The notes under the pieces: generated by a model
What the model saw: only the letters and a program-made list of their open reading frames with translations
Database searches by the model: none
Told to the model about the DNA's origin: nothing
Translations under genes and position numbers: made by a program
Assembly (NCBI GenBank): GCA_964016885.1
Contig: OZ024749.1
Span: forward strand, 16,678,001 to 16,742,000
Length of the DNA stretch: 64,000 nucleotides
Source: Eledone cirrhosa
Lineage: Eukaryota
Direction of reading: 5' to 3'
In this document: piece after piece, positions 9,819-64,000 of the stretch
Layout of the letters: each line of letters opens with the position of its first letter
How positions within the stretch are numbered: the stretch's first letter is position 1

Positions 9819-11936
9819 ATGGAAAATAAATTGATTGAGAAGAAGATTAAATGTGAAACATTGTCTAAAGATATGGCTACTCCAGAAGAGATGCCAAACA
9901 ATAGAGAAGGGGGGCCATATCACTGTGATATCTGTAACAACTCATTTTCTGCATCAAATACTTTAATTAAATACATACGCACCCATACAGGTGAGAAACC
10001 ATACCACTGCGATATGTGTGGTGAATCATTCTCTGTTAGTAGTACCTTAACTAGACACAAATGTATACATACAGGAGACAAGCCATATCACTGTAAAATC
10101 TGTGGTAAATCATTCCCAAAGAGTGGTTCATTAATGTCTCACATATGTACACATACAGGTGAGAAGCCATATCACTGTAATATCTGTGGTAAATCATTCT
10201 CAGAGAGTGGTTCATTAATGTCTCACATATGTACCCATACAGGTGAGAAGCCATACTACTGTGATATCTGTGGTAAATCATTCTCTCGAAGTAGTACATT
10301 AACTAATCACAAACGTATACATACAGGAGACAAGCCATATCACTGTGATATCTGTGGTGAATCATTCTCTCAAAGCAGTAGCTTAACTAACCACAAACGT
10401 ACCCATACAGGAGACAAGCCATATCACTGTGATATCTGTGGTATATCATTCTCTCAAAGTAGTCACTTAACTAGCCACAAATGTACCCATACAGGAGACA
10501 AGCCATATCACTGTGAGATCTGTGGTATATCATTCTCTGATAGTAGTACCTTAACTAGACACAAACATATACATACAGGAGACAAGCCATACCACTGTGA
10601 TATCTGTGGTAAATCATTCTCTGCAAGTAGTAACTTAACTACACATAACCATATACATACAGGAGACAAGCCATACCACTGTGATATCTGTGGTAAATCA
10701 TTCTCTGTAAGTAGTCACTTAACTAGCCACAAACATATACATACAGGAGACAAGCCATATCTCTGTGAGATCTGTGGTAAGTCATTCTCTGTAAGTAGTG
10801 CCTTAACTAGCCACAAACGTACCCATACAGGAGACAAGCCATATCACTGTGATATCTGTGGTAAATCATTCTCTCGAAGTAGTCACTTGACTAGCCACAA
10901 ACGTACCCATACAGGAGACAAGCCATATCACTGTGATATCTGTGGTAAATCATTCTCTGTAAGTAGTGCCTTGACTAGACACAAACGTATACATACAGGA
11001 GACAAGCCATATCACTGTGATATCTGTGGTAAATCATTCTCAGAGAGTGGTACATTAATGTCTCACATATGTACCCATACAGGTGAGAAGCCATACTACT
11101 GTGATATCTGTGGTAAATCATTCTCTCGAAGTAGTACATTAACTAATCACAAACGTATACATACAGGAGACAAGCCATATCACTGTGATATCTGTGGTGA
11201 ATCATTCTCTCAAAGCAGTAGCTTAACTAACCACAAACGTACCCATACAGGAGACAAGCCATATCACTGTGATATCTGTGGTATATCATTCTCTCAAAGT
11301 AGTCACTTAACTAGCCACAAACGTACCCATACAGGAGACAAGCCATATCACTGTGAGATCTGTGGTATATCATTCTCTGATAGTAGTACCTTAACTAGAC
11401 ACAAACATATACATACAGGAGACAAGCCATACCACTGTGATATCTGTGGTAAATCATTCTCTGCAAGTAGTAACTTAACTACACATAACCGTATACATAC
11501 AGGAGACAAGCCATACCACTGTGATATCTGTGGTAAATCATTCTCTGTAAGTAGTCACTTAACTAGCCACAAACATATACATACAGGAGACAAGCCATAT
11601 CTCTGTGAGATCTGTGGTAAGTCATTCTCTGTAAGTAGTGCCTTAACTAGCCACAAACGTACCCATACAGGAGACAAGCCATATCACTGTGATATCTGTG
11701 GTAAATCATTCTCTCGAAGTAGTCACTTGACTAGCCACAAACGTACCCATACAGGAGACAAGCCATATCACTGTGATATCTGTGGTAAATCATTCTCTGT
11801 AAGTAGTGCCTTGACTAGACACAAACTTATACATACAGGAGACAAGCCATATCACTGTGATATCTGTGGTAAATCATTCCTTGGGAAAAGTAGCCTAACT
11901 ACTCACAAACTTATACATGCAGAAGAGAAATCATAA
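9819..11936 (+). CDS. C2H2 zinc-finger protein, ~24 tandem fingers
   Basis: CxxC-x12-HxxxH repeats with TG(D/E)KPY linkers; uninterrupted 705-aa ORF; AATAAA at ~12525. Confidence 0.95.
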   Translation: MENKLIEKKIKCETLSKDMATPEEMPNNREGGPYHCDICNNSFSASNTLIKYIRTHTGEKPYHCDMCGESFSVSSTLTRHKCIHTGDKPYHCKICGKSFPKSGSLMSHICTHTGEKPYHCNICGKSFSESGSLMSHICTHTGEKPYYCDICGKSFSRSSTLTNHKRIHTGDKPYHCDICGESFSQSSSLTNHKRTHTGDKPYHCDICGISFSQSSHLTSHKCTHTGDKPYHCEICGISFSDSSTLTRHKHIHTGDKPYHCDICGKSFSASSNLTTHNHIHTGDKPYHCDICGKSFSVSSHLTSHKHIHTGDKPYLCEICGKSFSVSSALTSHKRTHTGDKPYHCDICGKSFSRSSHLTSHKRTHTGDKPYHCDICGKSFSVSSALTRHKRIHTGDKPYHCDICGKSFSESGTLMSHICTHTGEKPYYCDICGKSFSRSSTLTNHKRIHTGDKPYHCDICGESFSQSSSLTNHKRTHTGDKPYHCDICGISFSQSSHLTSHKRTHTGDKPYHCEICGISFSDSSTLTRHKHIHTGDKPYHCDICGKSFSASSNLTTHNRIHTGDKPYHCDICGKSFSVSSHLTSHKHIHTGDKPYLCEICGKSFSVSSALTSHKRTHTGDKPYHCDICGKSFSRSSHLTSHKRTHTGDKPYHCDICGKSFSVSSALTRHKLIHTGDKPYHCDICGKSFLGKSSLTTHKLIHAEEKS

Positions 11937-12485
11937 CGCATTGACATCAGTGATAAATCATTCTCTCAAATTTGTGAATTAATGAGAATACAAATATACA
12001 TCATTGTGACATCTGAGGGAAAATCATTCTCTTTGAATGTTACATTAACTACACACAAACATATACATACAGCTGGGAAGCTAAATCACTTTGATATATT
12101 TGGTAAATCATTCTCTAAATGTTGTGGCTTCACTAGACAATAACATATACAGGCGAGGAACTATATTACTGTGATGTCTGTGATAAATCCTTCTCTAAAT
12201 ATTGTGGCTTCATTAGACACTAACATATACAGGAGAGGAACCATATCACTGTGATGTCTGGTAAATCATTGTTTAAATGTTATGGCTTCACTAGACACTA
12301 ATATATACAGGAGAGGAACTGTATCACTGTGATGTCTGCGGTAAATCATTGTCTAAATGTTGTGGCTTCACTACACACTAACATATACAGGAGAGGAACC
12401 ATATTACTGTGATATCTGTGCTACATCATTCTCTTGTAAAGATTACTTAATTCAACACAATCAGACAAGATAAAAACCATATCAC
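11937..12485 (+). pseudogene. Degenerate zinc-finger repeats downstream of the stop (3' UTR)
   Basis: About 6 decayed ~81-84 bp units (cactgtgatgtctg..aaatcatt..catatacaggagag) with stops and indels. Confidence 0.8.
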
Positions 12486-13064
12486 TCACCCAAAATAGTG
12501 CCACAAATGTTGTTAATATTTTGAATAAAACTGTTTTACTAAGAAATTCTTCTTCTTTATTTTATTTGTAGAAGTTGTAACCAAGACGTGTGCTGACAAA
12601 ACTGTATTGTACAGAATTTACATACGCTATGTATACGTGAATGTATGTCTAGAAATTTGTGTCCATGTATATGTTTGTATATAAGTATGTGTATATCTGT
12701 GTTTGATTTATTTGTGTATGTATGTGTGTATATGTACGGCATCTTCATCAACATGAAAGGCTCTGCCTTTCTTTCACACTTACATAACATATCCTACAAA
12801 GCATGGTTGTTTCATTTCTCTCCAGTCTACATATCCTCTGCAGTCACAGCCCTTGTTTCGTTACCATTCATCATTGCACATCACCCACAGGCGTCATACA
12901 GTTGTCCTTTTGTACAGAGAGAGAAACCTTTTGTGGTCAACTGTTGCAGTAGCTCTCTAAACTTTTTCCATCCTATCCTTATTCTAGCTATTCATCTTTC
13001 AGAGCAGCCTCCTCCACTACTAATTAAGTCACCTCGATTGCAAAAGCTATCAACCACTTCTATG

Positions 13065-21989: not shown

Positions 21990-22832
21990 ATGTCTGAATA
22001 TAGCTGTGAGATTTGCAGGAAAACTTTCTCTTCAAAACTGAAACTATCCTCACACCAGAAAATACACAGAGAAAAAGCCTTCCACTGTGAAATATGTGGG
22101 AAATCTTTCACTAATAATTCTGCTCTTGTCGTCCACATACGGAGTCACACTGGAGAAAAACCCTTCCACTGTGAAATATGTGGGAAATCTTTTACTCAGA
22201 AGTACATTCTTGTAGAACACAAAAGAAAGCACACAGGAGAAAAACCTTATTCATGTGAAATATGTGGGAAATCTTTTTCTCAGAGTTCTCATCTTGAACG
22301 TCACAAAAGAACACATACTGGTGAATTACCTTATTCATGTGAAATATGTGGGAAATCTTTTTCTCAGAGTTCTCATCTTGAACGTCACAAAAGAACACAT
22401 ACTGGTGAATTACCTTATTCATGTGAAATATGTGGGAAATCTTTTTCTCAGAGTTCTCATCTTGTACAACACAAAAGAATACACACTGGTGAAAAACCCT
22501 TCCATTGTGAAATATGTTGTAAATCTTTTTCTAATAGTTCTCATCTTGTAAAACACAAAAGAATACACAATGGTGAAAATATTTATTCATGTGAAATATG
22601 TGGTAAATCTTTTTCTCAGAGTTCTCATCTTGTACAACACAAAAGAACACATACTGGTGAAAAACCTTATTCATGTGAAATATGTGGGAAATCTTTTTCT
22701 CATAGTTCTAATCTTGAACGTCACAAAAGAATACACACTGGTGAAAAACCTTATTCATGTGAAGTATGTGGTAAATCTTTCACTCGGAATTCGTCACTGG
22801 TTGTTCACCTACGTAGTCAACACTTGCGGTAA
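21990..22832 (+). CDS. C2H2 zinc-finger protein, 10 fingers
   Basis: Intact 280-aa ORF of [15 protein letters not shown] repeats. Confidence 0.93.
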   Translation: MSEYSCEICRKTFSSKLKLSSHQKIHREKAFHCEICGKSFTNNSALVVHIRSHTGEKPFHCEICGKSFTQKYILVEHKRKHTGEKPYSCEICGKSFSQSSHLERHKRTHTGELPYSCEICGKSFSQSSHLERHKRTHTGELPYSCEICGKSFSQSSHLVQHKRIHTGEKPFHCEICCKSFSNSSHLVKHKRIHNGENIYSCEICGKSFSQSSHLVQHKRTHTGEKPYSCEICGKSFSHSSNLERHKRIHTGEKPYSCEVCGKSFTRNSSLVVHLRSQHLR

Positions 22833-27493: not shown

Positions 27494-28010
<517 letters not shown>

Positions 28011-39417: not shown

Positions 39418-41555
39418 TCAAGGCGGTTGATTTCTCATAGGAGTGTCAATCCAGTTACAGATCAGGTGCGGTCTCAGATGAGGACAGCATCTGAAGATCT
39501 CAGTCTTTGAATTAAGGCAAGCGGAAGTGTCTCTCAAGTTTAGCAAAATCCTATACTTTTCTGTGGTACACAAAGAACAATTCTTTGTGCCCCTTTGGTA
39601 CTCCCTCGAATGGTCTAATATAGACCAATCAATAGAGTACGGGATGTTACTATCCTTGAGTTCCCACACCTTACTTGCGAGGGCTGTTGATGTTCGTTTA
39701 TCAGAGTGCTTAAAAGAAGCGACATGTGAGTAAAATCTGGTTTTAAACCTGTCCTGGGTCATACCGACATATCGCTCACTCCTGGCTGGCTGGTTGTTGA
39801 TTACTGGTGTTATCGTAGCCTCATAAACGACAGATTTAGTGTTACATCTACCCTGCAATGGGCATTCGTCCGGCTTCCTGCAACTGCATCCTGGATTTAT
39901 TCTCGTCCGGTTTGAGCTGGTGATTTTGGACTTCATGGATGGGCAACAAGAGTAGCTGACCTTGACTACGTTCCTATTAAATATCTTATAGTATCTATGA
40001 TTAGGAGGAAAATGTTTGTCTAATAGTTCAAGGAATTTCCTTCCTACATTAGTTTTGACAGTTAGAGAGAAGGGGGGTGTGAACCAAATAATCTTCCTTT
40101 TCCTGTTATTGTGGTTAGTTTTAGGGGGGGGGGGGGAGTAGGTAAATAAAAAAAATTTTCTGTAAAACCGCTGTTCTTAAGGGCTTTATTATAATAAGGG
40201 GCGGCTTTATTAAAAATGTCTATAGACGAAGATAAGGTAGAAATCCTACGGCTAATGTTAGGAATAAGATTATTAAAATCTATAGGGGGATGGCAAGACT
40301 CTTTGTGTATATACCTAAGATTTTCGTTAGGTTTATGGTAGGGTTTAAAAGAGGCAGTAAGTAAATCAAGATTAATATCAAGAAAGTTAGCATTAGTAAG
40401 GTTCGTATCTATAGTAATTTTAAGGTTAAGATTAGCAAAAGTATTGATTAAATCTTTACGGAATTTATCAAGGTCATGGCCGTTGGTGGTATGAGAAACT
40501 GCTAATCCGTCATCACGGTATAAACCGATATTATGGGACGGAAATTTCTCTTTGAGGGTGTGGAGAAGGAACAATCCAACTAAGTCACACACATCCGCAC
40601 TGTCATATGAACCCATTGCGACATCAAAAGAGTTTTCAGCGTTTCACTTTTTAACCCAAATATTATCATTAGTAAAAAGTAAAGTTTTTCTAGCATGGAG
40701 GATAATGTCTTCTTCTAATTTAGAAATATTAATGGAGGGTCTTGCAAAATCTAAGGCCTTAGTTAATAAGGAAACAGTAATAGAAGGGTAAAAATCGACA
40801 ATATCAAACTGGGTAAATCTACACTTATTTTTACCTTGTATATTATTGAACCAAGAAATAACAGAGGAAGTATTTAGCCACTGTGATAGGTCAGTGTTAG
40901 TTCTGATTTGGAGAATTATTTTTCTTAAGATATTCTTACTAGCAAGGCCAACCTCGGATTTAACCGGGTTAATCAATCTACAACTAGGTCGATTAGTAAA
41001 GTCCAATTTATGGTCTTTAAGGGTAATATATTCTTTACGCTTAGCTAAGCTTTCAATCTGGTTATCTATTTATAAAGAACGAGCTAGTTCTTTAGCTTCT
41101 TTATTGATAGTATTGTAGGTATTATTATTAGTTAATATATATTCATTGGTAATACTATTAGTTAAAAGTTGGTTATACAAAGTACTATTAACTTCAAAGA
41201 GGTTTTTAGTTTTATCAGAAAGAACGAAAGTGTTTGTAGAATTTCTAAAATTAGAAATATCGTTAGAAAGCTTGGTTTGAAAGTAATGATTGTACTTACG
41301 AAACTTGATATCATTAATTAGATTAACGAGGTCTAATTCGAAGTTGGCCATGTCTTTAATTCTAGGTGGATATTTACGAGATTTGATGTCAAAACAATCT
41401 TTAGTATCAGCCCTGAATAGTCCGTCGTAAACCATTGCCTTCCATCTCATTCTTTTAACGACTTGTTCGATTTTGTCTATGAGAATTTTGGTGTAAGTTG
41501 TGTTGGAAGGAGTGGGTATATTTTTGATTGAATAATCCAAATAATAAAGGTCCAT
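39418..41555 (-). mobile_element. Near-complete Penelope-like element (Naiad-like) with several frameshifts
   Basis: YSIKNIP..KRMRW, SDKTKN, CRLINP.KSE, QFDIVDFYPSI, MGSYDSADVC, GLYRDDG, CSCRKPDECPL, YVGMT..FKTRFYSH GIY-YIG. Confidence 0.93.
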
Positions 41556-41689: not shown

Positions 41690-41692
<3 letters not shown>

Positions 41693-42395
41693 ATAAATGT
41701 AAGTATCCATGTATACGTACATACATATATGTATACAGACGTACAGTAGCATGCACATATATATATATATATACATATATACATACATATGCATACAGGT
41801 ACACATCCGTTAATTTTCATAAGGAAAGTATATACTTTCGAACGTTCAACTATCTGGCAGATGGGTAAACGGTGCTGATGATAGCTAACAAGCTTGAAAC
41901 TAGTACATCGTTCCTGTGTCAGTGTTGAACAAAAAGGTGACGTGGTTGCCTTAACACCGTATGGCATAAATTCAGGCTGTTCAGTTTGTTTACAAACGAA
42001 CAAAGCGACGTTATAATAAGCGCCGCTAAACTGATACGTGCATATATGTATGTGTACCTGTATGCATATGTATATATATATGTATATATATATATATATA
42101 TGTGCATGCTACTGTACGTCTGTATACATATATGTATGTACGTATACATGCATACTTACATTTAAGTAAGTGCCATACTAAGAGTGAGAAATGAAATTTC
42201 GTTTTCATTTTGTTTCAATTTATCGTTTTCGGTATGCCTGACCGATTTAACTCACTCAATATGCAAATTAGGCTGCTCAGCCGTTAATTTTCATAAGGAA
42301 AGTATATACTTTCGAACGTTCAACTATCTGGCAGATGGGGTAAACGGTGCTGATGATAGCTAACAAGCTTGAAACTTTTCATTTTGTTTCAATTC
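41690..42395 (+). mobile_element. Hammerhead/retrozyme-like repeat variant B: ~1.2 monomers of 474 bp plus an inverted 5' fragment (41690-41806)
   Basis: CCGTTAATTTTCAT at 41807 and 42281; octamer 42261-42268; flanked by (TA)n. Confidence 0.8.
41868..41912 (+). ncRNA. Minimal type I hammerhead ribozyme
   Basis: AACGGTG CTGATGA TAGC taacaa GCTT GAAA CTAG TA CATCGTT; truncated second copy at ~42343-42375. Confidence 0.75.
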
Positions 42396-45751
<3,356 letters not shown>

Positions 45752-45829
45752 ATAAATATATGCTTTCATAGAAAAAGCATATAACGATATGTGCTTTTAC
45801 GATTCTCTAGAAAGGCCGGAAGATAGGTA

Positions 45830-45874
45830 AATATTGCTGATGAGTTGTAACAACAACGAAACTAGTTCAATATT
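45830..45874 (+). ncRNA. Type I hammerhead ribozyme (representative of 12 copies)
   Basis: AATATTG CTGATGA GTTGT aaca ACAAC GAAA CTAG TT CAATATT: 7-bp stem I, 5-bp stem II, intact core, palindromic minimal stem III, GUU site. Confidence 0.9.
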
Positions 45875-46203
45875 CCTTGTCTGGCTTTCTGGAGAATAGA
45901 GGAAAGGTGTTTCCTCAAAAACCAGTATGACTCTAAAAACCGGTTTGTCTGTGTGTTTACATACAGAATAGCTGGCCACTCACAGTAAAGTGACCAGTGA
46001 AAAAACTTGGTACATCTACATATGTATACGTGTGTGTATTCATATACATACTAGTATTTCAGTATACATATATGGATGTACATCTTTAACTTAATTGTTT
46101 AAGCGTCAGTCATACAAAAGTGAGTTACAAACGAAACGAAATTTAATTTCGTTTCGTTATTTGTTTTTATCGTCTCCGTTGAACCGGTACTTACTCACAC
46201 TCT

Positions 46204-46251
46204 ATGCAAATTAGTCTGCCCACTACTAATTTTCATAGAAAAAGCATATAA
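46204..46251 (+). promoter_or_regulatory. Putative snRNA/U6-type promoter module (octamer + PSE-like + TATA-like), one per monomer
   Basis: ATGCAAAT at 46204-46211, TAATTTTCATAG from 46227, ATATAA; same motifs and spacing in variant B (42261-42308). Confidence 0.5.
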
Positions 46252-48972
46252 CGATATGTGCTTTTACGATTCTCTAGAGAGGCCGGAAGATAGGTAAATA
46301 TTGCTGATGAGTTGTAACAACAACGAAACTAGTTCAATATTCCTTGTCTGGCTTTCTGGAGAATAGAGGAAAGGTGTTTCCTCAAAAACCAGTATGACTC
46401 TAAAAACCGGTTTGTCTGTGTGTTTACATACAGAATAGCTGGCCACTCACAGTAAAGTGACCAGTGAAAAAACTTGGTACATCTACATATGTATACGTGT
46501 GTGTATTCATATACATACTAGTATTTCAGTATACATATATGGATGTACATCTTTAACTTAATTGTTTAAGCGTCAGTCATACAAAAGTGAGTTACAAACG
46601 AAACGAAATTTAATTTCGTTTCGTTATTTGTTTTTATCGTCTCCGTTGAACCGGTACTTACTCACACTCTATGCAAATTAGTCTGCCCACTACTAATTTT
46701 CATAGAAAAAGCATATAACGATATGTGCTTTTACGATTCTCTAGAGAGGCCGGAAGATAGGTAAATATTGCTGATGAGTTGTAACAACAACGAAACTAGT
46801 TCAATATTCCTTGTCTGGCTTTCTGGAGAATAGAGGAAAGGTGTTTCCTCAAAAACCAGTATGACTCTAAAAACCGGTTTGTCTGTGTGTTTACATACAG
46901 AATAGCTGGCCACTCACAGTAAAGTGACCAGTGAAAAAACTTGGTACATCTACATATGTATACGTGTGTGTATTCATATACATACTAGTATTTCAGTATA
47001 CATATATGGATGTACATCTTTAACTTAATTGTTTAAGCGTCAGTCATACAAAAGTGAGTTACAAACGAAACGAAATTTAATTTCGTTTCGTTATTTGTTT
47101 TTATCGTCTCCGTTGAACCGGTACTTACTCACACTCTATGCAAATTAGTCTGCCCACTACTAATTTTCATAGAAAAAGCATATAACGATATGTGCTTTTA
47201 CGATTCTCTAGAGAGGCCGGAAGATAGGTAAATATTGCTGATGAGTTGTAACAACAACGAAACTAGTTCAATATTCCTTGTCTGGCTTTCTGGAGAATAG
47301 AGGAAAGGTGTTTCCTCAAAAACCAGTATGACTCTAAAAACCGGTTTGTCTGTGTGTTTACATACAGAATAGCTGGCCACTCACAGTAAAGTGACCAGTG
47401 AAAAAACTTGGTACATCTACATATGTATACGTGTGTGTATTCATATACATACTAGTATTTCAGTATACATATATGGATGTACATCTTTAACTTAATTGTT
47501 TAAGCGTCAGTCATACAAAAGTGAGTTACAAACGAAACGAAATTTAATTTCGTTTCGTTATTTGTTTTTATCGTCTCCGTTGAACCGGTACTTACTCACA
47601 CTCTATGCAAATTAGTCTGCCCACTACTAATTTTCATAGAAAAAGCATATAACGATATGTGCTTTTACGATTCTCTAGAGAGGCCGGAAGATAGGTAAAT
47701 ATTGCTGATGAGTTGTAACAACAACGAAACTAGTTCAATATTCCTTGTCTGGCTTTCTGGAGAATAGAGGAAAGGTGTTTCCTCAAAAACCAGTATGACT
47801 CTAAAAACCGGTTTGTCTGTGTGTTTACATACAGAATAGCTGGCCACTCACAGTAAAGTGACCAGTGAAAAAACTTGGTACATCTACATATGTATACGTG
47901 TGTGTATTCATATACATACTAGTATTTCAGTATACATATATGGATGTACATCTTTAACTTAATTGTTTAAGCGTCAGTCATACAAAAGTGAGTTACAAAC
48001 GAAACGAAATTTAATTTCGTTTCGTTATTTGTTTTTATCGTCTCCGTTGAACCGGTACTTACTCACACTCTATGCAAATTAGTCTGCCCACTACTAATTT
48101 TCATAGAAAAAGCATATAACGATATGTGCTTTTACGATTCTCTAGAGAGGCCGGAAGATAGGTAAATATTGCTGATGAGTTGTAACAACAACGAAACTAG
48201 TTCAATATTCCTTGTCTGGCTTTCTGGAGAATAGAGGAAAGGTGTTTCCTCAAAAACCAGTATGACTCTAAAAACCGGTTTGTCTGTGTGTTTACATACA
48301 GAATAGCTGGCCACTCACAGTAAAGTGACCAGTGAAAAAACTTGGTACATCTACATATGTATACGTGTGTGTATTCATATACATACTAGTATTTCAGTAT
48401 ACATATATGGATGTACATCTTTAACTTAATTGTTTAAGCGTCAGTCATACAAAAGTGAGTTACAAACGAAACGAAATTTAATTTCGTTTCGTTATTTGTT
48501 TTTATCGTCTCCGTTGAACCGGTACTTACTCACACTCTATGCAAATTAGTCTGCCCACTACTAATTTTCATAGAAAAAGCATATAACGATATGTGCTTTT
48601 ACGATTCTCTAGAGAGGCCGGAAGATAGGTAAATATTGCTGATGAGTTGTAACAACAACGAAACTAGTTCAATATTCCTTGTCTGGCTTTCTGGAGAATA
48701 GAGGAAAGGTGTTTCCTCAAAAACCAGTATGACTCTAAAAACCGGTTTGTCTGTGTGTTTACATACAGAATAGCTGGCCACTCACAGTAAAGTGACCAGT
48801 GAAAAAACTTGGTACATCTACATATGTATACGTGTGTGTATTCATATACATACTAGTATTTCAGTATACATATATGGATGTACATCTTTAACTTAATTGT
48901 TTAAGCGTCAGTCATACAAAAGTGAGTTACAAACGAAACGAAATTTAATTTCGTTTCGTTATTTGTTTTTAT

Positions 48973-52100: not shown

Positions 52101-55078
52101 CTCTTTTACTCTTTTACCTGTTTCAGCCATCCGGCTGAGGCCATGCTGGGGCACCGCCCTTGTTGCTACACATTTTATCTCCAGCCTGTATAGGTTGGCC
52201 ACTGGTGTAGGAGGGAGTTTGTTGCTGCTGCCCTTAGGTTTCCCTCGTGTCTTGCTGTGGGCTCATCCGGGATCCTGGATAACAAGGTGTCGAGATGTTT
52301 CTTAAAGACATCCACCTCCACGTCATGCAAGTCTCGCAGATGCCTCGGCAGCCTGTTGAAGAGTTGAGGGCCCTTGAATCCCAGGCTATTGCAATACCTG
52401 CTCCTTATTCTAGATGTGGAAGACGGGACCTTTGGCACCACACAGTGACGTCCTGTTCGACGGTTGGTCCAGCTCCCAATGCCAAAGTTTGGTGCTAGTC
52501 CCTCCAGGATTTTCCACATGTAGATCACTGCGTATCTCTCCCGTCTTCGCTCCAAGGAGTAGAGGTTCAGTTCCTTCAGCCTCTCCCAGTAGCTTGTCTC
52601 CGTCATCTTGGCAATCCTCTTGGTGTAGCTTCGCTGGATTGCCTCAAGCTCTGTGGTTAGTTTGACACTATGGGGTGACCACAGCTGGGAGCAGTAGTCC
52701 AGGCGGCTTAGGACAGAAGTCCTCCACAGTGTCAACATGGTGTCTCGATCTCTTGTAAGGAAAGTCCTCAAGATCCAGCCAGCGAATCGTCTACATGCTG
52801 TCGCCACCTTCATGATGTGTGAAGAAAAAGATGCATCATCGCTCATGTCTATGCCCAGGTCTCGTATCGATTTTGACACGGGGATATCGGTCCCTCCTGG
52901 TCCTGTGTAGGTGTGTTCCGCTATATTTGTGTTTGTGTTTGCAGGTTTGTATTGTAGGGCTTGGAATTTGCCAGCATTAAACTGCATGTTGTTTTCTTCC
53001 GCCCATCTGTATATGGCATCCAGATCCTGCTGTAAGAGGGCAGCGTCAGCCGGGTTTTTGATTGCCTGTGCTACCTTAGTGTCATCAGCATAGCTAGTGA
53101 GGGATGTTGTTGCATGCACCACAGAGGGCATGTCCGAGAGAGCCACCAAAAACAGTAGTGGTCCCAGGACTGTCCCCTGAGGCACCCCACTTGTTATCGG
53201 TGTTTCCCTCGAGAGGGCCCCATTTGCTGCGACTGCCTGGCTTCTGTCCCTCAGGAAGCCATGCAGCCACTCACCTACTTTTCCAGTTATGCCGAGTCCG
53301 TGTAGTTTGTGACATATCATTCCGTGGTCGACCTTGTCAAAGGCCTTCGCAAAGTCAAGATATATCACGTCTACATGTGAGCTGTCTAGTAGCTGTCTCA
53401 GTACCCAGTCGTAGTGATGTAGCAGCTGTGTAAGGCAGCTTCTTCCTGGGCGGAAGCCATGTTGCGTGCTAGTCAGGCGGTCATTTTCTTCGAGGAAAGT
53501 GATTAGTTTCTTTCTGACGACTCGCTCCATGACCTTACTGATATGCGACGTCAGGGAGACTGGCCTATAGTTCTTGGCCTCCGCTCTACTACCTCCTTTA
53601 TGGATAGGGCATATTGTGCCTTCTTTCAGCTCCCTGGGTAGTACACCGCTAGCCAAGGAGCTTCCGAAGAGCATCTTCAGTGGAGTTGCTAAGGCCCGCT
53701 TACATATTTTTAGGAGAACTGCTGGGAATCCATCAGGTCCAGCAGCCGAGTCTGTTCTAATTTCATCAATGGCGTACACCACATCCTCCTCCGTTATGTC
53801 TATGTGGTTGATGGTTGCCATTTCTTGATGTAGTGTTGTGGCATCAAAGAACTCCTCTGGCTTCGTTATTTGCATGTGCCTCAGTGGACATGTGAAGACA
53901 CTTTTGTACTGTTCGTTCAGTATTTCACATATCTCTTGGGGATTTTCGGTTAATGAACCGTCCGTGTGGAAGAGTGGTCCAATCTTGCAGTGTACTGAGG
54001 CAGTTTCTTTTGCAAATTTAAAGAAGGCCTTAGGGTTTGTTTTAATGTTTTCTATGGCCCTGTTCTCTTTCCTTGCCCTCTCATTCTCATGTGAAAGCTT
54101 GAGTGCAATCTCGGTGTCAAGTAGTGCACGTTTCAAATAGGATTCCTTCTTGTTTTGGTTTTGTTGACTATTCAACTGGTTTGAGAGTTTAGTTCTACGT
54201 CTCATAAGGATTTTCCTATCTCTGGGAATAAGATTTTTGTGTCTGTTTGCCTCTTTCTCCGGGACACACTTTTTGCATATGGTGTGTATCGTTGTCATGA
54301 AGTGTTGAAATTGTGTGTTAGTGTCTTGTGTGGCGATGTTTGCACTCCATGTTTGCTTCCGGATTTCACTCTTAATCTTCTTCCAGTCAGCCCCGTAGAA
54401 GTTAAGGCTGGATAGCGTCCCGGAGCTTCTTGGTGGTTTTGTCTCTGTTGGTTCTCTTGGACCACATATCATTAGCTCTACCAAGTTATGATCCGAGAGA
54501 ATTGTTGGTGTCACCTTTACATTGTGGATGAGCACTTCGTTGTTTGTAAAACAGAGGTCCAGGACATTTTCGCCTCTTGTTGGGAGGAGTATTGCTTGCT
54601 CCATGAACAGCCTGTGTGTGAGGGCCAGCAGGGATTCCGTCTGTCTCTGTTCTATTGACGTCATTCCAGGGAGGAGGTGGCCCTCAGGCCATTTGACCTT
54701 TGGTAGGTTGAAGTCTCCCAGCAGTAGGATGTTGAGACCCTGGTCCAGTTTGTCAAGGACCTCTTCTATCCTACTTAGGCTATCCTCAAATTTACCCTCA
54801 TGACTGGGGGCATCGGGCGGCCGATATGTGACACATATTACCGTCTGTAGTTTCTTCATATGTATTATCAGTGTGTCACAGACTGAGTTTGAATGTGTCA
54901 ACAGTACAATTGGTGTGACATCTTCACGGATATACAGAGCAACCCCACCATGAGTTCTCTCCTTCCTGTCCGAACGAAATACAGTATATTTCGGTATATG
55001 TATTTCTGCATCTGCTATACTGCTTGTCAGGTGCGTTTCGGTTAGTGCCATGCATAGTGCTTGATTGCTTATGGCTAA
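52101..55078 (-). mobile_element. 5'-truncated CR1/L2-group LINE with open APE-RT ORF2 (52175-55078) and (GTAAAAGA)n tail
   Basis: [45 protein letters not shown] with no stops; 3' GGCGGTGCCCCAGCATGG..GTAAAAGAGTAAAAGAG; (TA)n on both sides. Confidence 0.93.
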
Positions 55079-61522: not shown

Positions 61523-61570
61523 TAAGAGAGTAAAACAAAGAATCCTTTAATACATCAAAAGTTTTTATTA

Positions 61571-61608
61571 GCCGACAATGTTTCGTCCTATTAAGGACTC
61601 ATCAGGGC
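61571..61608 (-). ncRNA. Minimal type I hammerhead ribozyme (canonical GUC site)
   Basis: GCC CTGATGA GTCCT taat AGGAC GAAA CA t TG TC GGC, followed by AATAAA. Confidence 0.85.
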
Positions 61609-61819
61609 AATCAAACAACAAGAAGTAATTTCGGCAGATACAAGCCAGAAACTCTGAAGAATATGGGGTTTGCATATACTAATGTCTTACAAGGATATAC
61701 GATAATAAAAATGAGGATAAAACTATAATAACTAAGGATGTAGATGACATTAAGAACCATATTACAAATATGGTCCAAAGTCACCAACTTAAATCTAAAC
61801 AAATTTGGTTATATAGAAC

Positions 61820-63436
61820 AGGAATTATATCGTGATGATGCATTGTTTATAATTAACTCTAGTACCAATAATGTAGAACGTAATAAGAAGAAGCTTCATA
61901 AGTTTTTTAATAACTACAACCTTTCAATCACGATAGATAGAAACGATAGAGCGGTTAACTTTTTAGATGTGACTTTGGACTTGGCCACTAATAGTTTTAA
62001 ACCCTTCCATAAGCCTAATGAAATTCTTTCTTATGTTAACCCCAATTCTAACCACCCTAAGTCTATGATAAACTCTATAATTAAGGGCGTTTCTAATAGG
62101 ATTTCCACACTATCTAAGGACATAGGAACTTTTAATGAGCATGCGGAGTACTACAATAACGCCCTAGCAAATTCAGGTCACTCTAGTAAAATAAATTATA
62201 ATAATAGTAACCTTAGAAAGTCTCCGCTTACTCTTAATAATAATAACATTATATCACATAACATGGCTATGAATGTGAGTAGCAAACTTAGTAACCGTAG
62301 TACTTATATAGGAGTATCTGAACCCACCCATAGGTTATCCCACCGGACTCGTAGTAACAAGAGACAAGTCGAGCCCCCTGTGCGCTCACGCATTGGTGTT
62401 GATTTGGCTGGATCTTGTTCTAGTAATGTTGCTCCTACTGATCCTTTTATTGGCCTTAATCCTCTTGTAGGGACTCTGAACAACAGTGGATCTACTGGAG
62501 GTAGAAAATATAATAGGCAAAATGTAATTATGGCTGATTCTATGAATGCGGCTTCAGATATTCCCGATAGTAACCCTGGTCTTGAAGGTGTGACTTTTGA
62601 TAGAGGTAGGGTCGATAGGAGTAAAAATAAAAATAAAAATAGAAGGCGATTGAATACTTATTTCAACCCGCCATATAACCAGGATGTATCAACTAATATC
62701 CCTAGGTCTTTCTTCACTATCCTGGAGAAAAATTTCCCCCCCTTCTCACAAATACCATGGTATTTTTAATAAAAATATTATTAAACTATCATTCTCTACC
62801 ACCCCTAATGTTAGTTCTCATTTAGCTAGCACTAATAATAGGAAGATTAGGGGTGGATTCTCCTCTCTGCAGAATAATAGCCTGAATGCATCGGACAATG
62901 CTTTACCACCAGAACAGTCCTTATCTAATGGAGGTCCTAGGTGCAATACATCACCACTTGAGCCAACCAATAACACCCGGAAGTGCAATTGTAGAGTGAG
63001 TGCTAACTGCCCTCTAAACGGTAACTGCCTTTCTAAAAACATAGTCTATGCTTGTGAGGTTATAACTAATTCCTCTAAAGGAACATATATAGGATCTACT
63101 TCAAACACCTTTAAGACTAGATTTAACTCTCATATCTCTAACTTCAAGCATATTAGGTTTAAGAATTCCACCTCTCTAGCGCATTATATCTGGGACCTTA
63201 AGGGAGCTTGTATACCATATAGCCTTAACTGGAGTTTAGTAGCACAATCTAACCACCTTTCTGCACATAGTAAGTTTTGTAATCTCTGTATACTTGAGAC
63301 ACACTCTATTATTTTCTCTAGCGTACCCTTACTGAATAGAAAGTCTGAGATATTTTCTTTTTGCCCCCATGCAATTTCTAATTCTTACTTTTATTATAAA
63401 CCCAAATGTTCTAGTAGTACAAATCGAACCCATTAG
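61820..63436 (+). mobile_element. 5'-truncated Penelope-like element (RT thumb, long linker, GIY-YIG), one frameshift near 62740
   Basis: LYRDDAL, VNFLDVTL, SNHP, YFNPPYN, CNCRVSANCPL, YIGSTSNTFKTRFNSH, CNLC; same family as 34060-35950. Confidence 0.92.
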
Positions 63437-64000
63437 CAGATATATTCCATTACTTAGTTCTTTGTTTAGGTTCTTTTGTTTGCCAACACTATTGTTAACA
63501 TTGGTTTTTGATGACTCTTCATTCTAGCTCTCATAATCATTTGGCCACTGTACCGTATCTATGTCTTCACTATTACACCTTGTTAGTATACATAAGATTA
63601 CACACGTTATTACTTTTATATATTCTTTTATTATCATTAACTTTAATTTTTAATTTTAACATTATTTTTATTTTTATTTTTTATTTTCAATTCTATTTAT
63701 ATTTTTATTTTTAAGTCTATTCTTATTTTTAAGTCTATTCTGATTTATCTATTAACCCCCCCCTTCTCCCCCCCCCCTGCACGCATAAACTTATTGTCAA
63801 CCCCCCTAGATTGAATATGATTATATTAAAACCCCTCCCCACTCTTTTATGCTCTGTTCTATTATTTATTGTAGTATATCGAATTTATTATAATTTATTA
63901 TAGTATATCGAATTATTATAGTATATCGAATTTATTTATAACTATAGTATATTTAATTTTTAATTTTAACATTATTTTTATTTTTATTTTTATTTTTATT

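Follow-up and report, generated by a model that had tools for sequence, protein, structure and literature searches.

The window, which is the whole 64,000-nt stretch analysed here, contains 467-bp units arranged in two divergent arms and flanked by (TA)n tracts (Table 1). Judged from its sequence, the 467-bp unit is a non-coding type I hammerhead retrozyme with a predicted cleavage site, set in (TA)n with Penelope-type anatomy. Such an element very probably carries its own promoter and is mobilised by a Penelope-like element (PLE), whichever polymerase transcribes it. A more specific reading, in which a host octamer block and a TATA-like box serve as the promoter and transcription is probably Pol II read-through, not Pol III, has in our view an even chance of being correct.

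Table 1. Positions of the arrays, of one full unit and of its parts in the window
Feature	Positions	Strand
Right arm: 6.9 tandem family-A units, long tail-bearing end in (TA)n	45764-48972	+
Left inverted arm: 4.9 family-A units, short end in (TA)n at unit position 395	43476-45751	-
A complete unit, made up of linker, promoter module, hammerhead, body, a hairpin at the end, and T5	46169-46635	+
Octamer block TATGCAAATTAG, same as the upstream element of host U6, MRP and tRNA-Sec genes	46203-46214	+
Octamer ATGCAAAT	46204-46211	+
Site of the U1/U2-like PSE of sister families; degenerate in family A, CA column retained	46220-46231	+
TAATTTTCATAG, 'PSE' of the first-pass annotation; reverse-complement arm of the octamer block (hairpin 46201-46239)	46227-46238	+
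TATA-like box (ATATAA 46246-46251), 41 nt from octamer start	46245-46251	+
11-bp hairpin enclosing the TATA-like box; 3' arm is the T4 at 46262-46265	46240-46265	+
Predicted transcription start: A after a pyrimidine, inferred from host TATA at -30	46276	+
Type I hammerhead, with its core at 46304-46328 and a short, palindromic stem III	46297-46341	+
Site that is T5 in 18/28 family-A loci; C-interrupted in the window copy	46550-46554	+
Short insertion end position, unit 394-400	46562-46568	+
Terminal hairpin 46597-46625, T5 46631-46635, long insertion end position (unit 467-470)	46597-46638	+
Family-B insertion (variants C and B of the first-pass annotation)	41690-42395	
Family-B insertion: inverted short arm, then a near-full unit and a broken second unit	41690-41806 (arm)	
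Family-B insertion: octamer; TATA; two hammerhead cores	42261; 42303; 41875 and 42350	

Tandem non-coding units that each carry a type I hammerhead are a feature of metazoan non-LTR retrozymes, and this feature is present here. The hammerhead of the tabulated unit matched the Rfam HH9 model with 37.7 bits (E = 5.5e-7), below the 52-bit cut-off, with core and stems complete. At the gathering threshold, Rfam gave no match in the window, and miRNA matches in a sub-threshold scan were rejected as TA repeats. Cleavage is predicted after position 46334 at a GUU triplet; another family-A subfamily, seen on the contigs, differs by a pair of compensatory changes in stem II and by having the canonical triplet, GUC, instead of GUU (window 46779, 46790 and 46801). 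Exact matches to a 27-mer of the hammerhead put family A at a minimum of 5,209 copies in the 3.0-Gb genome of the host, probably a cephalopod, and a 30-mer of variant B gave at least 10,488 family-B copies in the same genome, with no match to the reversed-pattern control in either case. Variants B and C, described separately in the first-pass annotation, are consecutive units of a single family-B array (41807-42395). At the inversion junction between the family-A arms (45672-45820), the innermost units differ from the rest of the array at five positions, one of them on both arms, which suggests a template switch or a mixed template. Elsewhere in the window we observed C2H2 zinc-finger arrays with an 84-bp period (9914-12486, 22086-22780 and 27555-28007) and a LINE-like endonuclease/RT ORF broken by TA repeats (52175-55050, minus strand).

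The first-pass annotation had proposed that each unit carries an snRNA-class promoter made up of an octamer, a proximal sequence element (PSE) and a TATA-like box. The motifs stand where it placed them, with ATGCAAAT and TAATTTTCATAG 23 nt apart from start to start, and variant B has the same motifs 24 nt apart (42261 and 42285). For comparison, we took host genes from the same genome, which gave 48 matches for U6, 42 for U1, 48 for U2, 15 for U6atac, one each for MRP and RNase P, and two strong ones for tRNA-Sec. The comparison set consisted of eight distinct Pol III and nine distinct Pol II (U1/U2) upstream regions, leaving out U6 and U6atac copies that were duplicates, an array variant with a promoter insertion, and copies that lacked the elements. 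Host U1, U2 and U6 genes sit in tandem arrays. In seven of the eight host Pol III promoters, TATGCAAAT(T/G)AG was matched at 11-12 of 12 positions, at -76 to -79, with a TATA near -30. The RNase P promoter, for which the start is set by our reading of the P1 helix, showed the block at 8/12 at -76 and a TCAGT at -62. None of the nine U1/U2 promoters exceeded 8/12; they carry TCAGT at -56 to -58, mostly together with a TATA at -30. Among the 17 host promoters compared, only those of Pol III genes have the octamer block.

The window unit matches this host octamer element at 12/12 positions and one U6 promoter at 14/14. Chance does not account for the match of the 12-nt block, which was reached by 0 of 20,000 shuffled monomers. 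The proposal that every unit contains an snRNA-class upstream module was borne out to this extent, as the module matches the host's own genes. The same cannot be said of TAATTTTCATAG as a PSE. When aligned to the upstream regions of the 17 host genes, it had no match at a fixed place (best 7-9/12, at scattered positions), it varies across sister families, and, one mismatch apart, its sequence is that of the octamer block read as the reverse complement. Internal A and B boxes in the correct order were found in neither family A nor family B. The octamer block and the TATA-like box are likely the unit's own promoter.

The module extends well beyond the two families in the window. A genome search for octamer block plus TATA, with a pattern built to skip copies typical of A and B, returned 2,924 matches compared with 560 for the control. 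A hammerhead core (at most one mismatch) lay at +84 to +110 in 23 of the first 29 distinct, unselected matches; control windows had one in 4 of 145 cases, and none of the five host genes did. The combination of block, TATA and hammerhead recurs in about ten related families, which were sorted by eye (including old-B, D, E, E2, F, G, H and I) and have widely different bodies. Block and TATA conservation is partly circular for old-B and D-I, which were picked on the pattern, but not for A and B, which were picked on the ribozyme. In loci sampled from contig C1 and from the window (28 of family A, 30 of family B), shared variants were found in 1 of 116 promoter columns versus 45 of 441 body columns (A and B together, p = 4e-4), so that by this comparison the promoter segment in A and B is under purifying selection. 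Among the other hammerhead-pattern loci listed, 10 of 14 were without an octamer block with a unit around it. Family D is old, dispersed and found mostly as single units of promoter, hammerhead and a body of about 120 nt (L186, L187, L205, L219 and L249-L252); two of its copies share an identical 35-nt ribozyme core with diverged flanks.

The family-A motifs could instead be relics kept for RNA folding, with all transcription supplied by read-through from flanking host promoters. A review proposes this source of transcription for metazoan retrozymes, and retrozymes seem promoterless according to it (the portion of PMC7761336 consulted). The A promoter segment does fold strongly, with z = -5.2 compared with -2.1 to +1.3 in 13 host promoters and -3.5 to +0.6 in other families, and in family A both the TATA and the PSE are degenerate. 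In L077 (C1:30830000-30839900), an array of about 22 units, the octamer is also lost in 18 of 18 units scored; all of these carry three A>G changes over 6 nt of the octamer arm (unit positions 36, 40 and 41). However, 25 of 26 A loci retain the octamer, and octamer block and TATA keep a near-fixed spacing across families that differ in their bodies and hairpin registers. RNAalifold predicted no pairs when we looked for a conserved hairpin register across families, so the octamer hairpin is a prediction for each family separately. We therefore consider the relic explanation quite improbable. The A>G cluster in L077 is a pattern resembling A-to-I editing of a template RNA. As a general signature, such editing was not established: array-private shared changes were 4 A>G versus 0 T>C in A (p = 0.06) and 9 versus 6 in B (p = 0.24).

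Which polymerase would use the promoter is a more difficult question. The unit had been described as a Pol III transcription unit of the U6 type, and this assignment is contested by our comparison: the confinement of the octamer block to host Pol III genes speaks for it, while the geometry and start base of the sister families are like those of U1/U2. The window unit itself departs from host U6-class genes in three respects, namely TAATTTTCATAG as a PSE, the spacing and the predicted start base. Two of the outcomes that the first-pass annotation had itself named as counting against its proposal apply wholly or in part. From octamer to TATA, host Pol III genes have 46-48 nt. The distance is 41 nt in all 18 distinct A promoter sequences, 42 nt in all 34 B sequences and 40-43 nt in D, E, G and H, which leaves these families 5 nt, or half a helical turn, short. 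U6-type geometry is seen in families F and I, with 47-49 nt in nine of ten F sequences and 48 nt in I. The PSE-to-TATA distances of host RNase P and U1/U2 differ by 5-6 nt, which is similar to the gap between the short retrozyme spacings and those of host Pol III genes. In insects, PSE sequence and PSE-TATA spacing are described as conserved markers of promoter class (PMC1761439, in the part available to us).

The sequence at the PSE site and the predicted start show a similar division. We trained a PSE matrix on nine U1/U2 blocks; this matrix and its Pol III counterpart, built on eight promoters, are small, the promoters are partly related, and the anchor was picked after the resemblance had been noticed. 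The matrix peaked 27 nt before TATA in 8/8 representatives of E, E2, G and H (scores -2.3 to 11.0), and the U1/U2 PSE site, 26-28 nt before TATA, ranked second in B and in 4/7 D. Family A ranked 19 of 56, and family F fails too. Host Pol III genes scored -7.6 or lower at that site, with RNase P matching at 32 nt. At TATA+30, GC|AG was found in 28/34 B and 22/31 E promoter sequences, as in U1. Families A, B, E, G and H would start on A by this prediction, not on G as in host U6-class units, and the F and I copies scored have inferred starts that are mostly Y|G, as in 8/8 host Pol III genes. Family A scores as neither class (PSE -6.1 versus -7.4; initiator -3.2 versus -2.4), and its Pol II call follows from geometry and from the related families. 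A host-like 3' box was found in none of the A, B or E units, which is consistent with read-through. In F and I copies (L213, L214, L233-L239 and L241), we observed a T-run about 75 nt (73-79) after the predicted start, just past the hammerhead. These two families form a possible Pol III-geometry clade, by their sequence features.

T-runs bear on the same question, since a promoter that recruits Pol III would have most transcripts stop at the T5, with a leaky fraction reading on to the next hammerhead and yielding the unit RNA that bears the promoter. The window copy has no T4 from 46266 to 46630, ahead of the terminal T5, as the first-pass annotation had noted. Taken by itself, this copy does not make the absence significant (shuffle p = 0.145; Fisher test against A-runs p = 0.09). 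Over the bodies of eight short-spaced families, the ratio of T3 to T4+ runs was 35:0, compared with 41:17 for A3 to A4+ runs (p = 2e-4), in a test that used one representative per family, eight chosen from 20 measured bodies, with ends set just before the terminal T-tracts. When the family-A T5 and family F were added, the depletion had p = 0.002-0.003, and among all 20 measured bodies, 13 were without a T4, three had one, and all four F bodies had two or three. The T4-free stretch is a subfamily trait and does not hold family-wide: an additional T5 lies 81 nt ahead of the terminal T5 in 18 of the 28 A loci, some of them arrays of 5-7 units. A T7-8 occurs at internal tandem junctions in 8 of 25 B loci, and family F has mid-body runs of T5-T8 despite its U6 geometry, so that geometry and T-runs are not both strict determinants. 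The T4 depletion is real and incomplete, and strong T-runs did not block propagation.

We consider Pol III recruitment of this kind unlikely, yet a serious rival to the Pol II reading. Besides the octamer block and the depleted bodies, it gains from F and I, with their exact U6 geometry, Y|G start and T-run soon after the hammerhead, and from the four T3 runs that precede the T5 in the terminal hairpin arm of A. Against these points, and apart from the short spacing, the 18 A loci with an additional T5 would require read-through of T5, T5, T4 and T4 per unit, and the B loci with T7-8 at internal junctions were propagated all the same. The long ends of B lie about 6 nt beyond the T-run, one old-B array is without a T-run, and the ends of autonomous Penelope-like elements are also T-rich. 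The short octamer-to-TATA spacing, the U1/U2-like PSE and start in sister families, and the T5-T8 runs inside propagated units together favour Pol II, which leaves the T4+ depletion in the bodies unexplained. Use of both polymerases, with Pol III making short T-terminated RNAs and Pol II the propagating multimers, would square this depletion with the tolerated T5-T8 runs. It would also suit a module that combines a Pol III-type octamer with U1/U2-type PSE and spacing, and human RPPH1 is described as carrying both polymerases (PMC3499247, consulted in part). The short Pol III products would be of no obvious benefit to the element, however, and we regard dual use as improbable.

The ends of the insertions are more readily explained by a Penelope-like element than by termination. 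The first-pass annotation had read the T5 as a Pol III terminator at which the insertion ends. The right arm does end at the T5 plus a 2-nt AT microhomology (48966-48972). The left arm stops 72 nt before it would reach the T5, at unit position 395 (43476), and the terminator reading gives way because only one arm ends there, as in Penelope tails. Eighteen of 28 A loci are two-armed, and 17 of these have one end at unit 465-470 and the other at 394-400; the ten one-armed A loci comprise eight with the long end and two with the short end. The ends of family B behave like those of A. Separate hammerhead-bearing elements with RT/GIY-YIG-type ORFs show the same inversion, the same two ends and the same (TA)n target, with T-rich ends. 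PLE insertions usually bear a tail on one end, according to the sections of Craig et al. available to us (bioRxiv 2021.04.23.441226). Since a tail on one arm is found both there and in PLEs of the same genome, a PLE-type priming end is the better reading of the T5 end than a terminator. A search for tail sequence shared between A or B and seven PLE ends of this genome gave chance T-rich matches only. The window also contains two broken Penelope-like elements with an RT YRDD motif plus GIY-YIG at the C terminus (61540-63440, plus strand; 39420-41555, minus strand), the first of which has an inverted terminal piece with a hammerhead (61605-61577, minus strand).

Every tandem unit contains the promoter module, and the hammerhead-to-hammerhead RNA has a predicted fold of -155 kcal/mol, with z = -11.4 as a linear and -7.9 as a circular molecule. 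The octamer, TAATTTTCATAG, the TATA and the T4 at 46262 all fall in hairpins of this predicted RNA. The earlier suggestion that tandem layout and ribozyme cleavage place the next unit's promoter within the RNA agrees with the repeated module and the unit-length fold, and we consider it likely from the modelled RNA that the promoter is carried in this way. Within most arrays the units are identical, and between arrays they differ by up to 7%, a pattern expected of rolling-circle copying of one template. Alternatively, single units could have been retroposed and the arrays grown at the DNA level by satellite-type expansion with no circular template; local amplification is favoured in the portion of bioRxiv 2026.07.22.740005 that we consulted. 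A few arrays do have mixed or periodic unit variants, with variants recurring with a period of 2 or 3 in L088 and in the minus arm of L092, which may mean that the templates were dimers or trimers, or that the arrays later expanded at the DNA level. The periodicity was rejected as proof of multimeric circles, being limited to L088 and one L092 arm and absent in L080. Array growth at the DNA level appears very improbable given the identity within and divergence between arrays, the inverted arms and fixed ends, and a unit RNA that folds far better than shuffles. A single retroposed unit would, moreover, still have to contain the promoter.

Under the preferred reading of a self-promoted, PLE-mobilised retrozyme transcribed by Pol II, a captured snRNA-type promoter would start the transcript about 28 nt before the hammerhead core, and the transcript would run through the T-runs and the next unit's promoter. 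Successive hammerheads would cut it into a 467-nt RNA that includes the promoter, which would then be ligated into a circle. A Penelope-like (Neptune-type) element could copy this circle by rolling-circle reverse transcription into (TA)n, with homogeneous, often inverted arrays and a tail on one arm as the outcome. More broadly, and as a tentative proposal, one retrozyme superfamily may have captured a normally external host snRNA promoter, moved by way of ribozyme-made circular RNA, and come to comprise two clades separated by 5 nt of spacing, one with Pol II geometry (A, B, D, E, G and H) and the other with Pol III geometry (F and I). If this is true, more than 15,000 octamer/TATA modules seeded genome-wide would form a natural series for SNAPc-type polymerase choice, and the two geometries make that choice testable. 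The elements show how a retroposed element can retain an upstream promoter. In addition, the comparison defines host U6-class and U1/U2-class promoter elements, which are useful for guide-RNA expression.

Earlier publications cover retrozymes, retrozyme circles and a proposed link to PLEs (Cervera and de la Pena 2020, PMC7229834, and bioRxiv 2026.07.22.740005, both seen in part). Metazoan non-LTR retrozymes are described in the former as tandem, non-coding, low in GC and equipped with a type I hammerhead. The units here resemble them in strongly folded unit RNA, thousands of copies and coexisting hammerhead-bearing PLEs, and differ from those described there in their longer unit (467 nt), host-matched snRNA-type promoter, visible Penelope-type inversion and one-arm tail. 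For animal retrozymes, the PLE link has so far consisted of co-occurrence and ribozyme similarity; the elements here combine a host-matched promoter under selection with insertion anatomy identical to that of PLEs in the same genome. The word 'promoter' is absent from the accessible text of the retrozyme preprint (bioRxiv 2026.07.22.740005), and the giant squid genome paper gives 235 hammerhead loci with no detail in the part consulted. In the open literature, which excludes Repbase, Dfam, subscription papers and supplements, we found no report of a promoter-bearing superfamily or of a promoter in cephalopod hammerhead repeats.

Neptune-type PLEs, as described in portions of Craig et al. (bioRxiv 2021.04.23.441226) and Li et al. 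(bioRxiv 2026.07.22.740005), share with these units (TA)n targeting, an inverted 5'-truncated arm, a tail on one end and a hammerhead. Compared with them, the units have no ORF and a tail of 59-72 nt without a match to the seven PLE ends compared, so that a pLTR origin is unsupported. With the type 3 promoters of host U6, U6atac, MRP and tRNA-Sec genes, the units share an identical octamer block and a TATA element, whereas, F and I excepted, their spacing is shorter by 5 nt, they have a different block after the octamer, and their predicted start is A, not G. The schistosome Sm-alpha repeat is likewise a hammerhead repeat with its own promoter, described as Pol III and tRNA-associated (PMC2220036 and PMC4918200, in part), whereas families A and B have no ordered A and B boxes.

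The closest parallel is newt satellite 2, which according to Coats et al. (1994) is reportedly a hammerhead tandem repeat with an internal snRNA-type promoter. This promoter is described as using Pol II (PMC2220036, in part). Both systems thus pair a hammerhead tandem repeat with an internal snRNA-type promoter. The elements here differ from what is described for the newt in having a TATA-like box and an octamer beside the PSE, a match to host Pol III genes and two geometries, and in belonging to a separate animal lineage. By analogy, the element, known here from its sequence, may work in the way of newt satellite 2, with insertion by a Penelope-type route added.
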